From NCBI GenBank assembly GCA_041483895.1, contig JBGPGO010000011.1, positions 64,001 through 128,000 of the forward strand: a DNA stretch of 64,000 nucleotides, written 5' to 3'. Of the stretch, positions 42,642 to 51,113 are shown piece after piece. Each line of letters starts with the position of its first letter. The stretch's first letter is position 1. This DNA comes from Fimbriimonadia bacterium. GTDB lineage: Bacteria > Armatimonadota > Fimbriimonadia > Fimbriimonadales > JABRVX01. The notes beneath the pieces are model-generated. The model searched no databases, was not told the origin of the DNA, and worked only from the letters and a program-made list of their open reading frames with translations. The translations under genes and the position numbers were made by a program.

Positions 42642-43831
42642 CCTCCGACGACTATTCCGGCAGCCCGGTAATCTGAGATGCTTGCTTCGGCAACCCGTTG
42701 TTCGGCCTGGACTGAACCCTCCTCGACTTCCCGCAGGGAGCGCGTCGCCTCGAGAACATCGATCAGAGTGGACGCCCCTTCCTCGTAACCGATTCGCGTT
42801 TTATCAACAAGGTTTCGGGCAGATTCCAGAATGTTACGATAGCTCTCGACTTGCGTTTTCGCGGACAGCAACTCTTCGCGAGTCGCCGATAATTCCGCTA
42901 CCGCCGTAAGCCGAATATCTTCGAGCGCCTGTTCGTTCGCTAGCGCCTTGGTTTGTGCCGATCTAACTTCGTTTCGAGCGCGTCCGAAATCGAACACCGC
43001 CCATGATAACTGTATGCGCGCACCGAAGCGAGCGCCTCCTTCATGCCACGGCAGCCTCAGTCCCTGAATCTCAAGGTCAGGCCTAACGCTCGCCTTCGCA
43101 ATACTCGCCTCGGCCTTGGCTGCTTGCACATCGGCTTTGGTGAGGAGAACGTCTGGTCGCTGGGAGATATCGACCGTTGCCAATTCACCCAATGTTGGAA
43201 AAGCGTTGACTTCCTCGGCGGCCACGGTGACTCCAAGCTGCGCAGACAGACGTTTCAGTGCGACAAACTTCTGGCTACGACGCAGATCGCTATTCTGTTG
43301 GGCGCGCATGACTTCGATTGCTGCCCGTGTTTGCTGCACCTCAGCGACCTTGCCTTCCTCGACCCTTCGGTCTACCGCCGCCTTCAGTTGTTCTGCGTTC
43401 TGTAATACGGAATCCGCCGTAATCGACAGCTTGACTGCCGAAACGGCTTCGGTCAGCGCCGTCAGCACGTCTGTCTGGAGGTCAATTAGCTCGCCGCGAT
43501 ACGCTGCTTCGGCCTGTTGGACCAGGGCCGCGCCACTCTGCCTGCCGGCTTTCGTTCGCCCAAACAGGTCAATCGGCTGTGAGATGAAGGCATCTTGGTC
43601 TGTCGATCCTATGTCGCGATCGGTCGAATATCCGACCCCAAGTTTCGTAGCCAAATATGTTCCAATGGCGCGAGCGCTGATCCTGGCTTGTTCAACCCGT
43701 AACTTTGCCGCTTGCAATTTAGGACGATGTTGCGCGGCCAACTGCAAAGCTCGTTGCGCGTCGATGGCGTCCGGTTGAGCCCATGCCGCCCGGACAAAAC
43801 AAAAACAAAGACTTATGACCGTGGTATTCAA
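42632..43831 (-). CDS. czcC: TolC/CzcC-family outer-membrane factor
   Basis: Signal peptide; QPIDLFG, RPDV, GYEEGASTLIDVLEA; TTG start with GGAGGAG SD. Confidence 0.85.
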   Translation of the reverse strand: MNTTVISLCFCFVRAAWAQPDAIDAQRALQLAAQHRPKLQAAKLRVEQARISARAIGTYLATKLGVGYSTDRDIGSTDQDAFISQPIDLFGRTKAGRQSGAALVQQAEAAYRGELIDLQTDVLTALTEAVSAVKLSITADSVLQNAEQLKAAVDRRVEEGKVAEVQQTRAAIEVMRAQQNSDLRRSQKFVALKRLSAQLGVTVAAEEVNAFPTLGELATVDISQRPDVLLTKADVQAAKAEASIAKASVRPDLEIQGLRLPWHEGGARFGARIQLSWAVFDFGRARNEVRSAQTKALANEQALEDIRLTAVAELSATREELLSAKTQVESYRNILESARNLVDKTRIGYEEGASTLIDVLEATRSLREVEEGSVQAEQRVAEASISDYRAAGIVVGGWN

Positions 43832-43835
43832 ATGA

Positions 43836-43963
43836 CTGCTCCTCCGTTTCGTTAGCTTTGGCCTAGAACGTCAGGCGGGTCAAAACCGAGCGGCTCTAGG
43901 CGAACATCAAACGATGGGAGCGAACAGGAGGGGCACGGGATAATTGCGTTCCCGGAGGAGCAG
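43836..43963 (-). promoter_or_regulatory. SD-sequestering RNA structure (translational attenuator) for czcC
   Basis: mRNA CUGCUCCUCCG (43963-43953) is an exact 11-nt complement of CGGAGGAGCAG (43846-43836), which contains the czcC SD; nested GCCUAGA/UCUAGGC stem spans the leader stop. Confidence 0.7.
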
Positions 43964-44330
43964 GTGGAAGACTGTGCGTCGATTCGACTTCGGTCGGGCC
44001 GCTCGATTTCCGTGGCTCGAGAATCGGTCCGCAGTCAACGGAGAGGCAAACTGGGTTGCCATTCCGCTGCTGGGCCGCTGCCCTAAGAGCCGCCACGTCA
44101 TGGTTACAGAATTTGAGCTGGCAGCACAACCGACAACTTGTTCCGTTCAATCCTGATATCGCGTTGTTTCCGGTTGCCAAGACAACGAGGGACATGCTAG
44201 AGCAAATTTGACATGGGGTATCGTCAGGTCCGTAGTACTCGGCCTTACAGATGTGTGCCGTTCCGAGTAGAACAAGCACCGAACAGACGAATGCCCTTAT
44301 CGCTCTCAAGTTGCTGCCGATGATTCGCAA
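43896..44330 (-). CDS. Cys-rich exported leader protein with C-terminal RAPP motif (DUF2946/CruR/CutF-like)
   Basis: Signal-like N-terminus; CQIC, CRLCC, CNH; PPAPP...SRAPP near the C-terminus; directly upstream of czcCBA. Start is TTG 44330 or 44309; TTGACA-N18-TAACCT promoter candidate at 44359-44330. Confidence 0.7.
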   Translation of the reverse strand: MRIIGSNLRAIRAFVCSVLVLLGTAHICKAEYYGPDDTPCQICSSMSLVVLATGNNAISGLNGTSCRLCCQLKFCNHDVAALRAAAQQRNGNPVCLSVDCGPILEPRKSSGPTEVESTHSLPPAPPGTQLSRAPPVRSHRLMFA

Positions 44331-44522
44331 GGTTATCGTTAATGGTTGGCTAGTGTCAACTCATTTTGTCGGGTCTGATGAGAGATCCAATGCATGTCGG
44401 GATAGCACAGCGAATGGTCCTCTTGGATACCAAGCAGTTTGGATGGTCGTGAAAGCGCGACTCGACTTGGCTCCCTTGCAGCGGGACCCCTCTGCCGCAG
44501 ATGATTTCGACCAGCTAGGCTT

Positions 44523-44550
44523 CCTATCGAAAAGAACCATTATCGATAGG
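44523..44550 (+). other. 28-bp dif-like recombination site B
   Basis: CCTATCGAAAA GAACCA TTATCGATAGG; arms are 10/11 inverted; 8 bp from the CHAT gene stop. Confidence 0.8.
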
Positions 44551-44558
44551 AGCACGAG

Positions 44559-47500
44559 CTACCTCCAATCTCCGGTCAGAGTAAACGGTGCCCAGTAGTA
44601 CGGGTGAGGATGCTTCTTCGCCGTCTCGACCATCGCCAGACGCAGAGCCTCGTCCGTCGCCTTGCCCAACTTCCGGTTTCGGTGGAACGCGACCATCAGA
44701 TCGGCGGTGGATGCGTCGCTGACCTGCCACAGGCTTGCGACAACCGAGCGAGCCCCGGCAAACGTTAAGGAGCGAGTGAGGCCCACAATCCCTTCTCCGC
44801 GTACGTTTTTGCCTTGCCCTGTCTCGCATGCTGAAAGGACGACAAGATCGGCGCTCAGATGCAGTTCACCTGCAATCTCCCACGCCTGCAACGCGCCATC
44901 GTCGTCCGTCTCATCTTCCTTGGGCTCCATTTTCGGAACAGTCAGGAGAAGGCCTGAGGACATCGGAATCAATTCGTTGAGATAGCCGTGAGTGGCTAGA
45001 TGGATGACTCTTGCGCCGGCGAGCTTGGTGCGGAGATTCGCTTCAGATGCCTCTTCGCCGATAAGCGGTTTGACGCCATAGAGCGCCGCCACACTCTTTG
45101 CTTCCACCGATGTACCAGGCAAATATGGAGGCGGACTGGCGGATCCCCAGAGGTAAGAACGCGCCGATCGATCTGGTGAATCATTCTTGGCGGATGATTG
45201 CGATCTTGTGAAGTACGCTCCTCCTAGAACGCACGCTCCTCGACCTCTTGGCGACGGCTGTGCGGCGGAGCGCGCGAAGAGGGCGATTGATGGTGTATAG
45301 GTAATCGGTATCGAAAGGCCGAGGTAGGTCCCGTTTACCCTAAACGCCGCGAACGGCACATTCCAGAGCGGGCCGTCCGGCGTTATGATGATTCGCTTCG
45401 CGTTCAGCACCATCGGACCCAGTGCCTTTGGAATAAGAATCTTGCCGAGGGTTTGCAGGTCTGCCTCTAGATTCGTGGCAGGCTTCGTGTTAGTGATGCT
45501 CTTTACTCCCCGTGCATTCTGTCCGGGGGCCATGGCAAGCCCTACTTGTACTCTGTCGACTAGCCTTCGCAGGCTATCTTCTTTCAGATTGATTACATAC
45601 GTCTTTGGTCCCCATTTCCTTCCGATCGCGATGACAACTGGTCCGTCTGGGGTGACAGCGTAACCGAGATAGAGCGAATGCGGGGGGAGGGACTTCTGAA
45701 GCTGGGCAGTCGTCAATTCGGGAACGAAAACTTCAGGACTTTGCCGTTTGATCTCTCTGGCCAGCGATTCTGCCTCCACTCGCGTCTGCGTGGCCTCCGC
45801 AAGTTCCAGATCATATCGGGCCTTCAAATCGCTCGCATCAGTTGCCCGACCTTCGCGTTTGGCAACAATCTGGCGGATGCTATCTTGCTCGGCATGCTTC
45901 ATCAGTCGGTCTTTCCTGAAAAGGAGATCTTGGTACCGCCGGTAGTTGGGAGATGATTTTGCTTTAGAGCTCAGAACCCGATCGGTTAACACCTGTCGGA
46001 GCGCCTGCGCCTGCATCTCTTGCAGGGTTGTGAACGCGGTTGCGAGCGACAGAAGGCATTGAGATCGTACCAAACGCTCGCCAATCAGGATCGTATTCAC
46101 AGCAAACGACTGACGAGACTCGTCGCCAACGGCCGAGTTTGACTGTCTTCTGACGATGCGCCAGGCTTTGCCGAACATGACCTCGGATTGCCGGATTTCC
46201 CCGCGCCGTAGAGCCAATATCCCAAGGTTGTCATAACTGACAGCTAGATCAAGACTGTCCGGCGCTTTGACCTTCCTGATCTCCAGCGCTTGGCGGAACC
46301 GCATCTCTGCGACGGCCATGTTGCCGCGATGGGATGCGGTAACACCGATATTGTTGTAACTCCTGGAAAGCTCAATGCTGCCGGGGGCTTGGCGTTCCCA
46401 GATATCAAGCGATTTCCGGTTCCAGTCGTCGGCTGCGCCCAAATCCCCTCTATCGTTTGCAACGCTGGCGAGATTGTTGTACGTATATGCGAGATCGATG
46501 CTGCCTGGCGCTTTCGACTCTCTGATCGCAAGTGACTTCCTGTGCCACGCATCTGACGCCTTGAGGTCACCGAGCGTGTCTGCATTCGTTCCGAGATTGT
46601 TGTAGATCAGTGACAGCTCCAGACTTTCCGGGAGTTTGCTCTCCCATATCACGAGGGCTCTTCGATACCACTGATCGGCGGCTTGAAAATCTCCCCGGTC
46701 CGCTGCCACGTTCCCGAGATTATTGTAGCCTCCACCGAGGCTTATGCCATCAGAATCATTTTTCTGCCAGATCGCGAGGGCCTTCCTGTCCCATTCTTCA
46801 GCATCCTTAAGATCCCCGCGGACCTCGGCGTCTTGGCCGAGATTATTGTAGATTGTTGCCAGGTCCAAGCTATCCGGCGCTTTGCGATCCAGTATCGTTG
46901 TTGCCTTCAAATACCATTCGTCGCTGCTCCTAGTGTCGCCGACCAAACGTGCCCAAGCTCCGAGGTTCTTATATGTTGTTGCGAGATCCAGGCTATCAGG
47001 CGCTTTACGCTCGACAATAGCCAGGTCCTTCTTGTACCATTCCCCGGTAGCATGTTGATCCCCGATATCCCTTGCCACGTTGCCGAGATTGTTATAAATG
47101 GCACCCAGAGCGAGGCTGTCCGGCGCAATGGACTCCTGGATAGACAGGGCCCTTCGGTACCACGCCCCTGCGCCAGGAAAGTCTTTGAGTTCCTCGGCGA
47201 TTACGCCGAGGTTGGTGTAGCATGCCGCAACATCGGTGGTTCCAGGCGCCTTGCGCTCCCTAATCGCAAGCGCCTTTCTATACCACTGTTCGGCCGCGGG
47301 CAAATCTTTGCGGGCCCACGCCGCAGCGCCAAGATTATTATAACTCGCCGCGAGATCGAGGCTGTCGGGCGCTTTGACTTCCCTGATCTCGAGTGCTTTC
47401 CTCATCCATGCCTCTGCCCCATCCACGTCCCCATGTCGCCACGCCAAATTGCCTAGCGCATTCATGCTCCAAGCCTCCCAAATGCTGCGGCCCGCTGCGT

Positions 47501-48728: not shown

Positions 48729-48860
48729 TGTAAACGGCGGAGAGAAACTGTACCACTGAGGCGGCGGGTACCAACCCGAATCGCCGGAGCAAAATTGTAC
48801 CGGCCTTGACGGCCTCTTCCAGACTTCGGATTGAAATCCGGAGGATGGGGAGGCGAAAGG

Positions 48861-50356
48861 ATGTACTCAGTGGAAATCTACGTAAGAGTTCGGCGCGCCG
48901 TCGTTGTGGAAGGCCTGAGCCAAAGGGAGGCCGCGCGGCAATTTGGAATCCATCGCGACACCGTTCGCAAGATGCTCGCCTTTTCTCTTCCTCCCGGCTA
49001 CCAGCGCAAGGAGCCGGCGGCAAAGCCGAAGATCGGCCCGTTCACGAGGGTCATCGACCAGATTTTAGAAGAGGACCTTGGCGCCCCGAAGAAGCAGCGC
49101 CACAGCGCGCATCGGATCTATGAGCGCCTCACCGAAGAGCACGGCTTGGCGGTGGGTACACCATCGTCAAGGACTACGTTCGGGAGCGAAAGCTGGTGAA
49201 GGAGGAGATGTTCGTTCCGCTTTCCCACCCTGCCGGCCATGCGCAGGCGGACTTTGGAGAAGCTCTTGCTGTAATCGGCGGCGTACAAAGGAAAATTCAC
49301 TTCTTCGCGATGGATCTGCCTTTTAGCGACGCCTGTTTCGTGAAGGCATACCCGTCAGAGACGAAAGAGGCGTTCTTAGATGGCCACGTGTCGGCGTTTT
49401 CGTTCTTCGGCGGCGTTCCGCAGTCCATTCTCTACGACAACACGAAGATCGCGGTGGCGCAGATCGTGGGGTCAGGAACGAGAGTTCGCACCAAGGCGTT
49501 CACGGAACTCGTCAGCCATTACCTGTTTGGCGATCGGTTCGGCAGGCCGGCCAAAGGCAACGACAAGGGGAAAGTGGAAGGTCTCGTCGGCTACGCCCGG
49601 CGCAACTTCCTGGTCCCCATCCCTCGGTTTGCAAATTTTGAAGAACTCAACCACCACCTGGAGGAGCAGTGCCAAAAGCGCCGTGAAGACCGCCTGCGGG
49701 GAAAGAGCGCCATGATCGGCGAGCGGCTCGTTCTCGACCAGGATGCATTCCTGCCGCTTCCCACCGCCGAGTATGATGCTTGCGACAAGCGGGTGGCCCG
49801 GGTCAGCTCGCTCTCCCTGGTTCGGTACAAGGGCAACGACTACTCCGTCCCCACCCGCTACGGCCACCTGGAGGTTCTGGTAAAGGGGTTCGTGCATGAT
49901 GTCGTCATCTCGTACAAAACAGATGTCATCGCCCGGCACGTTTGTTCCTACGAAAAGGAGGACTTCGTCTTCGATCCGCTGCACTACCTTGCGCTCCTGG
50001 AAAGGAAGGTTGGCGCGCTGGAGCAGGCGGCGCCTCTTGCCGGTTGGGATCTCCCCGAAGAGTTCGCATCCCTGCGCCGCCTTCTGGAAGGCCGGATGGG
50101 AACAAACGGCAAGAGGGAGTACGTGCAGGTGCTGAGGCTTCTGGAAACCTTCTGCGCCGAAGATGTCGTCGTCGCCGTGCGGGCCGCCCTTTCGCTTTCG
50201 GCGATCAGCTTCGATGCGGTAAAGCATCTTCTTCTTTGCCGAATCGAAAAGAGGCCGGAAAGACTCGACCTTTCGCTGTATCCGCATCTTCCCAAAGCCC
50301 TGGTTCAGACCACGAAGGCCGCGAGCTATCTCGCCCTGCTGACGGAGGTGGCCTAA
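48861..50356 (+). pseudogene. istA: IS21 transposase IstA, frameshifted near 49148
   Basis: HTH (SQREAARQFGIHRDTVRKM), AQADFGE, YDNTK, KGKVE; restoring 1 nt at CACGGCTT^GGCGGTGGGTAC gives the conserved GGYTIVKDYVR. Confidence 0.9.
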
Positions 50357-50357
50357 G

Positions 50358-51113
50358 ATGGACCAATCTCCGCAAGTTCTGCTAACCCATCACCTCAAGG
50401 CTTTGAAGCTACCGACCTTCCTTCGGGAATATGAGAAGACGGCGTCGCTATGCGCGAGCGCGAACGAAGGCCACGTGCGCTACCTGTTTCGCCTGTGCGA
50501 GCGGGAGCTGATCGACAGGGAGCGCAGGATGGTGGAACGAAGGATCCGGCAGGCGCGCTTTCCCGCCGTGAAGGGTCTCGATACCTTCGACTTCGCCGCC
50601 ATCCCTTCTGTAAACAAATCGTTGGTCGTGGAACTCTCGAGGTGCGAGTGGGTTCAAAAGAAAGAGAACGTGATCGCTCTAGGCAACTCCGGAACGGGAA
50701 AGACCCACGTTGCCTTAGGGCTCGGCCTTGCCGCTTGCCAGAAGGGCCTTGCCGTCGGCTTTACCACCGCGGCCGCTCCGGTGCACGAATTGATGGAAGC
50801 CAAGGAAGAAAAGAGGCTGCTGCGCTTCCAGAAGCAGCTTGCCGCTTGCCGGCTGCTCATCATCGACGAACTGAGGTTCGTGCCTCTGTCCAAGACCGGG
50901 GCGGAGCTTCTCTTCGAGGTGTTCAGTCTTCGGTATGAACGAGGCTCGGTTCTCGTGACCAGCAACCTGCCGTTCGACGAGTGGACGGAGGTGTTCGGCT
51001 CCGATCGCCTGACCGGCGCTCTTCTTGATCGTCTCACACACCACGTCCACATCCTGGAGATGAACGCCGAGAGTTACCGCCTGACGCAAAGCAAGAAGCG
51101 AAAGGCAACTTGA
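50358..51113 (+). CDS. istB: IS21 helper AAA+ ATPase IstB
   Basis: GNSGTGKTH, LLIIDEL, TSNLPFDEW, LLDRLTHH. Confidence 0.93.
   Translation: MDQSPQVLLTHHLKALKLPTFLREYEKTASLCASANEGHVRYLFRLCERELIDRERRMVERRIRQARFPAVKGLDTFDFAAIPSVNKSLVVELSRCEWVQKKENVIALGNSGTGKTHVALGLGLAACQKGLAVGFTTAAAPVHELMEAKEEKRLLRFQKQLAACRLLIIDELRFVPLSKTGAELLFEVFSLRYERGSVLVTSNLPFDEWTEVFGSDRLTGALLDRLTHHVHILEMNAESYRLTQSKKRKAT

Follow-up and report, generated by a model that had tools for sequence, protein, structure and literature searches.

The window analysed here, a stretch of 64 000 nucleotides, contains a czcCBA-type efflux operon that is preceded on the same strand by a small leader open reading frame (ORF) ending 64 nt before czcC. 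The question raised by this locus is whether codons of the leader double as an anti-Shine–Dalgarno sequence, such that the position of a ribosome on the leader decides whether the czcC Shine–Dalgarno (SD) sequence is exposed, and which codons these are. A sequence-only reading had assigned this role to a run of proline codons, PAPP. That reading is right in kind, with the wrong codons named; the arm under family-wide selection lies at and after a second motif, RAPP, closer to the end of the leader. The leader is most likely an addition, without a Pfam family of its own, to the published RAPP/CutF-like class of metal leaders that stand before efflux operons.

The leader and its operon

Features are on the minus strand unless stated otherwise. 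The czcC SD region (43846–43836) forms a duplex of −9.5 kcal/mol with the 3′ end of the genome's own 16S rRNA and, as had been stated, ends 4 nt before the TTG start of czcC at 43831 (spacer TCAT); TTG is the usual czcC start among related loci. The operon comprises a czcC-like outer-membrane efflux protein (43831–42632; PF02321, E = 4.6e-33), a czcB-like periplasmic adaptor (42641–41103; PF16576, with TIGR01730 above and TIGR00999 below cut-off), an 84-residue hydrophobic ORF that separates czcB from czcA and matches no family above cut-off (41100–40846) and a CusA/CzcA-family heavy-metal RND pump (40799–37704; TIGR00914, 1293.8 bits against a cut-off of 701). In the PDB the pump is nearest to ZneA (748.6 bits versus 665.6 for CusA). 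Its nearest CzcA relatives among named records (66–69%) carry the titles Chthonomonas, Chthonomonadales/-aceae, Fimbriimonadaceae and, in one case, Synechococcus. On its upstream side the leader is adjoined by a gene for a 1194-residue PDZ-TPR-CHAT protein (48143–44559). Beyond this, ORFs at 48831–51113 on the plus strand are presumably an IS21-type istA/istB pair, of which the istA-like gene is apparently divided into two ORFs at 49196–49199.

The leader ORF (44330–43896) has 144 codons from TTG 44330 and ends LPPAPPGTQLSRAPPVRSHRLMFA. An alternative start at TTG 44309 (137 residues) would better match the N-termini of relatives. The first TTG is overlapped by a candidate promoter (44359–44330), made up of a perfect TTGACA and, 18 nt further on, a weak −10-like hexamer; its use would move the start of the leader to TTG 44309. 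This candidate was not called by a promoter consensus scan, which gave no sites; one plus-strand terminator-like match was at chance level. The layout is a hydrophobic N-terminal helix, Cys motifs, a C-terminal PP-x5-RAPP and a nine-residue tail. The helix codons (44306–44259) would specify a Sec signal or membrane anchor; the Kyte–Doolittle 11-mer mean reaches 2.7 in this leader and is at least 2.0 in 59 of 61 leaders, and the AlphaFold model has a helix at residues 3–24 (pTM 0.38). The Cys/His codons (44255–44106) encode H26-x-C28, C40xxC43, C66xxC69C70 and C75, a putative metal- or disulfide-binding sensor. We infer that these motifs are metal-binding sites; the columns HxC, CxxC, CxxCC and C are near-invariant in 43 aligned leaders, and the His residues of the family motif HGDCHDCC are absent from the window leader. 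Residues C70, P125, R132, P134 and P135 are invariant in the alignment, so that R, P and P of RAPP are kept in 43/43 leaders, and the tail varies. The RAPP codons (43937–43926) are the putative arrest site, with the P site on 43931–43929 in the RAP/P register adopted from PMC10951233.

Profile scans gave no match of the leader to any Pfam or NCBIfam family. Membership of DUF2946 (PF11162, the family of CruR and CutF) by HMM was rejected at both family and locus level: none of the 43 aligned leaders matched, nor did any of the 25 tested among 150 listed family representatives, and a whole-genome scan at E ≤ 1 gave no match at the czcC leader locus. A riboswitch was likewise rejected, the Rfam covariance models giving no match at E ≤ 1 over 43500–44700. 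A single-protein search with the leader returned 49 candidates, none of them significant. The ESM Atlas placed it with unnamed clusters and with DUF6769 at 0.94 on only 112–126 shared features, which is a lead only.

Pairing of leader codons with the czcC Shine–Dalgarno region

The exact 11-nt complementarity between the PAPP codons and the SD region is as had been reported: 43963–43953, CTGCTCCTCCG, is the reverse complement of 43846–43836, CGGAGGAGCAG. The 11-mer lies within the PAPP codons at 43964–43953 (CCT GCT CCT CCG, P123-A124-P125-P126) and is the arm of a locus-specific extra helix. The 7-bp inner stem over the leader stop was also correctly described (GCCUAGA, 43901–43895, with UCUAGGC, 43867–43861, the TAG being in the 5′ arm). 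A second CUCCU had been placed in the RAPP codons; the motif is present (CTCCT at 43930–43926) but the implied pairing register is wrong, as the competing helix joins 43927–43917, the end of RAPP and the Val-Arg-Ser codons, to 43845–43836 with one bulge. This RAPP-side arm runs on into the body of a long hairpin (43914–43849), in which 43914–43910 pairs with 43853–43849, and then into the inner stem.

RNAfold applied to 43820–44000, the check proposed with the sequence-only reading, predicts the PAPP:SD helix with 10/11 pairs in the minimum free-energy structure. The fold has z = −1.88, and 5/200 shuffles were equally good. In four folding windows the ten core pairs have probabilities of 0.62–0.99 and the terminal C-G pair 0.24–0.36, so the helix dominates the naked ensemble; the competing partner at 43927–43917 pairs with a probability of up to 0.26. 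As isolated duplexes the arms differ in the same direction (PAPP −24.1 versus RAPP −18.5 kcal/mol). Synonymous recoding of the last 30 codons produced a match of at least 11 nt in 21/20000 trials with genome codon usage and in 86/20000 with uniform usage. Across the genome, matches of at least 11 nt were found for 9/3256 long ORFs, and for 5/764 ORFs with a strong SD, the czcC leader included; most of the other matches are local hairpins or repeats. The PAPP match is genuine and, for a single locus, unusual.

Related loci were gathered by two CzcC searches, one of 61 genomes (54 matches at E ≤ 1e-3) and one of 228 genomes (93 matches at E ≤ 1e-30). From the second, 60 loci were chosen by hand, the weakest, contig-edge and same-score duplicate matches being omitted. 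Of 90 loci, four had no CzcC match on re-search and four had no R[AGS]PP leader; the omission of L089, whose start was uncertain, left 81 loci, three of them with a manually re-called start. De-duplication at 75% arm identity reduced these to 61. Distant TolC homologues (L022–L026; 27–29%) were retained in the locus set. An unpublished genome is counted only in the genome tallies of the CzcC searches, and none of its loci was used. An R[AGS]PP leader precedes czcC in 82/86 loci with a CzcC match. A profile search with the leader gave 171 family representatives at 50% clustering; among the 150 listed family proteins the terminal motif R[AGS]PP is present in 146, and PAPP occurs in the last 40 residues of none.

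At the amino-acid level the 61 loci retain the upstream proline pair, which lies five residues ahead of the Arg and takes the forms TGPP (31), NAPP (10), HGPP (5), NGPP (3) and PAPP (1) among others. The 11-nt match is unique to the window among the 81 loci, the next best being 7. A CzcC search of metagenome and genome contigs gave no confirmed relative; CzcA searches reached relatives of 69% identity at most, and PAPP was absent from the upstream site of all the leaders listed for them. The nearest relative retaining a leader (L032; CzcC 61%) has no PAPP-type pairing (recoding p = 0.35), keeps the RAPP-arm pairing (p = 0.007) and has a stop-covering stem similar to that of the window. The nearest CzcC relative of all (L031, G170:C148:3700-4900; 64%) has no RAPP leader, and the ORF directly upstream of its czcC is one we take to be an ArsR/SmtB-type repressor; this arrangement suggests that transcriptional and leader control have been exchanged for one another. 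The runs listed for the source genome are 19 DNA and no RNA runs. Four of the DNA runs had no variant letters at the places covered, and therefore provided no strain variants for a co-variation test.

Co-variation was examined with a swap test, in which each 5′ block was paired with its own SD region and with that of every other locus (61 loci). The block that begins at the first RAPP proline pairs far better with its own SD region (−15.04 versus −9.77 kcal/mol swapped; 0/20000 permutations as good). The block equivalent to PAPP shows no such preference (−9.45 versus −9.37 kcal/mol; 7777/20000), and for a control block taken further 5′ the values were −9.29 versus −8.56 kcal/mol (272/20000); these permutation counts are overstated because kin are not independent. 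Synonymous recoding of each locus gave p ≤ 0.05 for the RAPP block in 26/61 loci and for the PP block in 3/61, as many as chance would give. Of these three the window has the lowest p (0.007), an unremarkable value for one among 61 loci. When the RNA was folded only between the Arg codon and the czcC start, a design that leaves out the PP block by construction, at least six SD-window bases were paired at offsets of 0–30 from the Arg codon in 51/61 loci. The RAPP-side arms are entirely different in sequence between loci, with complementarity and offset from the Arg codon kept; in the window this family-conserved anti-SD arm is 43927–43917, at offsets 10–20. At the two RAPP prolines the codon is CCT in 30/61 and 32/61 loci, compared with 107/560 Pro codons upstream, and CCT-CCT is found at RAPP in 5/10 loci with an AGGAG/GGAGG SD and in 12/51 others; slow decoding could be an alternative cause of this bias. 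When 31 short-tail loci were aligned with MAFFT, RNAalifold detected no consensus structure, so column-wise covariation proof was not obtained; the arms are out of register in the alignment, and for this reason the alignment-free swap and recoding tests were used.

The RAPP-side arm is thus under family-wide selection, seen as both co-variation and synonymous-codon selection. That leader codons serve as the anti-SD is supported for RAPP and the codons after it, and is not supported for the PAPP prolines as the switch, for which the expected covariation was not found by swap or recoding in the 61 loci. The perfect PAPP match catches the eye, but PAPP:SD pairing is not the conserved switch. Its likely neutrality follows from the composition of the two partners, as Ala-Pro codons complement the common family SD GGAGCA and few synonymous choices complete the match.

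Ribosome position and the proposed switch

The cost of opening the czcC SD window was computed for the 61 loci with the footprint of one ribosome, −12/+15, masked. The median cost is 10.9 kcal/mol for naked RNA; it is 11.0 when the ribosome sits on the upstream PP and falls to 5.6 when it sits on RAPP. A drop of at least 3 kcal/mol occurs in 42/61 loci for the RAPP ribosome and in 1/61 for the upstream-PP ribosome; the 19 loci in which the former is absent are mostly of a class with long tails. The claim that ribosome position on the leader decides SD exposure is backed family-wide, as a modelled result, by the footprint calculations together with the swap and recoding tests.

We consider it probable that the leader is a RAPP arrest peptide of the CutF/CruR type, stalling on which turns czcCBA on. 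The Cys-rich leader would be exported or targeted to the membrane, and its ribosome, to judge from the motif, would stall at RAPP. With no ribosome there, the codons at and after RAPP would form the 5′ arm of the long hairpin, whose 3′ arm contains the czcC SD, and czcC is predicted to be shut. In the model, a ribosome with RAP in the P site covers the 5′ arm and frees the SD, so that a stall would mean that the pump is on; the fixed distance of the co-varying arm from the stall codon predicts the same. The stall would most likely be prolonged by metal that binds, in the periplasm, the Cys motifs of the nascent leader, by analogy with CutF; metal is the likely input because the downstream genes encode an efflux pump and because of this analogy. 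From the type of pump, Zn, Co or Cd is slightly favoured over Cu as the inducing metal. The PAPP 11-mer would be an extra arm specific to this locus, able to replace the family arm in ribosome-free mRNA and adding ~3 kcal/mol.

The same RAPP switch might instead answer to a non-metal input, as a SecM-like monitor of Sec export or disulfide formation or through CruR-like Rho-dependent termination. The original description of RAPP peptides was as monitors of protein localization (PMC7897499, PMC10987492), CruR is reported to act through Rho, and the loss of the family His residues from the window leader points the same way. We regard this as unlikely, however, since the SD-covering helix co-varies, a feature superfluous to a switch working through Rho alone, and the downstream operon is a heavy-metal pump.

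The window itself was modelled with three folding windows and three footprints. Opening the SD costs 13.8–17.3 kcal/mol in naked RNA and still 11.0–13.8 kcal/mol with a ribosome on PAPP, because the RAPP-arm helix then replaces the PAPP helix; in the footprint model a pause on PAPP cannot open czcC. With a ribosome on RAPP the cost is 2.2–5.6 kcal/mol if only RNA 3′ of the ribosome folds, and 10.6–15.9 kcal/mol if PAPP may pair across the ribosome, so opening by a single RAPP stall depends on whether such pairing takes place. It is probably strained, by our own estimate, as PAPP ends only ~10 nt outside the footprint on the 5′ side. With one arm masked the cost is 10.5 or 13.8 kcal/mol and with both masked 5.7, the footprint of two ribosomes gives 4.6–8.1, and a terminating ribosome with PAPP free to pair leaves the SD at 15.0–15.2 kcal/mol.

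These masking, two-ribosome and termination values favour an arrangement of two interchangeable arms, 27 nt apart, in which one stalled ribosome would remove the RAPP arm alone and a second, waiting in the queue nine codons upstream, would cover PAPP, so that czcC would open only after a long stall; or else PAPP would simply curb leakage from ribosomes that pass or terminate. The nine-codon spacing, about the length of one ribosome, would suit it. The two-arm arrangement is nevertheless unlikely as an account of the locus: the second arm is found at a single locus and shared by no relative (1/81), the spacing is a family-wide protein feature older than the match, the pairing across the ribosome would be strained as estimated above, and one locus at p = 0.001–0.007 among 61 is unsurprising. 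We found no paper on queue-gated SD release in the open-licence literature. There is a small chance that czcC opens only with a stalled and a queued ribosome, the switch then reading collision, that is, stall duration; if the second lock were functional, this would be an unusual leader in needing queued ribosomes to switch. Taken by itself, the PAPP match is, on balance, neutral or due to chance, with a useful second lock a less probable but still serious possibility and a primary switch improbable.

The last of these was rejected because the SD stays shut with PAPP covered and the 61 loci show neither co-variation nor synonymous selection of the PP block. In its specific form, in which it is the PAPP codons that act as anti-SD and an EF-P-type proline pause on PPAPPG exposes the czcC SD, it could draw on the rarity of the exact match for one locus (0.1–0.4%), the stronger duplex and its dominance in the naked ensemble, the conservation of the upstream PP as amino acids and the stalling of CutF at a proline run under EF-P control, as reported in a preprint (bioRxiv 2025.02.05.636593). 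It is nonetheless a very doubtful reading, given the family result, the high opening cost under a PAPP-bound ribosome and the nearest leader-bearing relative, which dispenses with the PAPP pairing and keeps the RAPP arm.

Plain translational coupling, with the leader an ordinary periplasmic metal-binding protein and RAPP no site of regulated stalling, stays alive as a rival because in short-tail loci (e.g. L012–L017) the SD is opened to the same extent by a ribosome terminating on the leader and by one stalled at RAPP, and CzcI of Cupriavidus is reported to have no C-terminal proline motif (PMC9973294). It deserves very little credence, as R, P and P are invariant while the tail varies, RAPP/RGPP is excluded from proteomes save in such leaders according to PMC12992588, and long-tail loci keep two mutually exclusive helices and, in the six modelled, are closed by termination.

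The long-tail class, with 13–18 residues after RAPP, has L005, L006, L008–L011, L037, L042 and L043 among its members, and further L048–L050, L053, L059, L069 and L073. Its layout is attenuator-like, a segment of the leader tail and the czcC SD competing for one intergenic segment, and both helices are conserved in 15 aligned loci. The alternative helix is 99.3% paired in these and mostly invariant (34/500 shuffles as high), a sign of weak covariation. For six long-tail loci, in a model in which only RNA 3′ of the ribosome folds, termination closes the SD (10.3–13.6 kcal/mol) and a RAPP stall eases it (4.9–7.9 kcal/mol).

Known arrest leaders and further loci

The RAPP/CutF-like class is in print, with few members that have a defined RNA switch; the present family adds about 60 natural variants whose anti-SD arm co-varies with the SD while its distance from the stall codon stays fixed. 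Stalling on CutF of Rhodobacter capsulatus unfolds a stem-loop over the cutO SD (PMC9973294), and the copper-induced stalling involves EF-P (bioRxiv 10.1101/2025.02.05.636593). The window leader resembles CutF as a small Cys-rich leader with a C-terminal PP motif and a predicted stem-loop hiding the next SD, export being presumed in our case. Of the properties that define CutF-like ORFs in that work (PMC9973294), it has a length of 144 residues from TTG 44330 (<150 required), a proline pair at P134-P135 of 144, a PF02321 gene on the same strand 64 nt downstream (≤1000 nt, typically metal homeostasis) and the conserved Cys/His motifs, whose binding role is putative; for the N-terminal signal peptide that also belongs to this definition, the hydrophobic helix is a candidate. 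An SD-hiding stem-loop released by a stalled ribosome is predicted in silico. The commonest neighbours of CutF-like ORFs are outer-membrane efflux protein genes annotated CusC/CzcC (PMC9973294). The two differ in that the CutF stem-loop is described as intergenic, whereas the anti-SD of the czcC leader lies within its own RAPP-and-tail codons, and in their targets, a multicopper oxidase and czcCBA. The string 'Armatimonad' is absent from the main text of PMC9973294.

Small secretory or membrane ORFs with R[AG]PP near the C-terminus form the RAPP type of arrest peptide, and the window leader ends in RAPP followed by nine residues. CruR of Bordetella pertussis (BP2923, Pfam DUF2946; PMC9426467) arrests at RAPP (PMC12992588) and is, like this leader, a CxxC-containing uORF with a C-terminal RAPP before a metal-transport operon. 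CruR, however, precedes an importer, its stall is relieved by copper and it acts by Rho-dependent termination, whereas the window leader precedes an exporter, with SD sequestration predicted and a stall meaning ON; CutF and CruR themselves act in opposite directions. In the source data of PMC12992588, TolC genes show an enrichment of RAPP uORFs on their upstream side (530 versus 380 for AAPP, 5.5-fold), and these 530 cases before 'TolC family protein' genes have the same gene arrangement as the window. The word 'stem-loop' does not occur in the main text of that paper, and the strings Fimbriimonad and Armatimonad are absent from those of its supplementary files that were searched.

The RAPP/RGPP peptides of the ApdA/ApdP type stall in the RAP/P register assumed here (PMC7897499, PMC10951233, PMC10987492). 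In SecM and in uDF_RQH, the secDF leader, a stalled ribosome disrupts an SD hairpin as proposed for czcC, which stem mutants demonstrated in the case of uDF_RQH. The ApdA/ApdP, SecM and uDF_RQH leaders head sec/yidC genes, whereas the window leader heads czcCBA; for ApcA, ApdA and ApdP no SD-covering hairpin is predicted (PMC10987492, PMC7897499), in contrast to the hairpin with co-varying arms of the czcC leader family. No paper on this family was found in the open-licence literature.

Small ORFs of similar kind were noted elsewhere. Among czcA-like upstream regions (L091–L250), 136 of the 152 with enough flank have a small Cys/His ORF with PP near its end, by a loose filter. Most of the small ORFs upstream of the first czc gene in L094–L250 end in W/F-Q-P-P and some in RAPP/RGPP; by record title these loci are mostly from Bacteroidota.

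The source genome itself has a second leader (contig C9, minus strand, stop near 155651, ORF about 155651–156047), which was missed by tblastn with the czcC leader as the query. It is His/Cys-rich with a hydrophobic N-terminus, ends in RGPP plus seven residues and stands 27 nt before a gene for a 466-residue protein, presumably an outer-membrane porin or receptor; its DUF2946 match is weak (E = 0.3) and below cut-off. The codons after RGPP pair with the downstream SD in the same geometry as in the czcC leader, and the SD-opening cost is 15.8 kcal/mol naked, 3.4 with a ribosome on RGPP and 15.8 with a ribosome nine codons earlier. On the minus strand of contig C1 of the same genome, the gene for a secreted protein that ends in what we take to be a VPEP-type sorting motif (start near 310979) has a perfect 15-nt SD complement ~130 nt upstream, inside a short repeated element.
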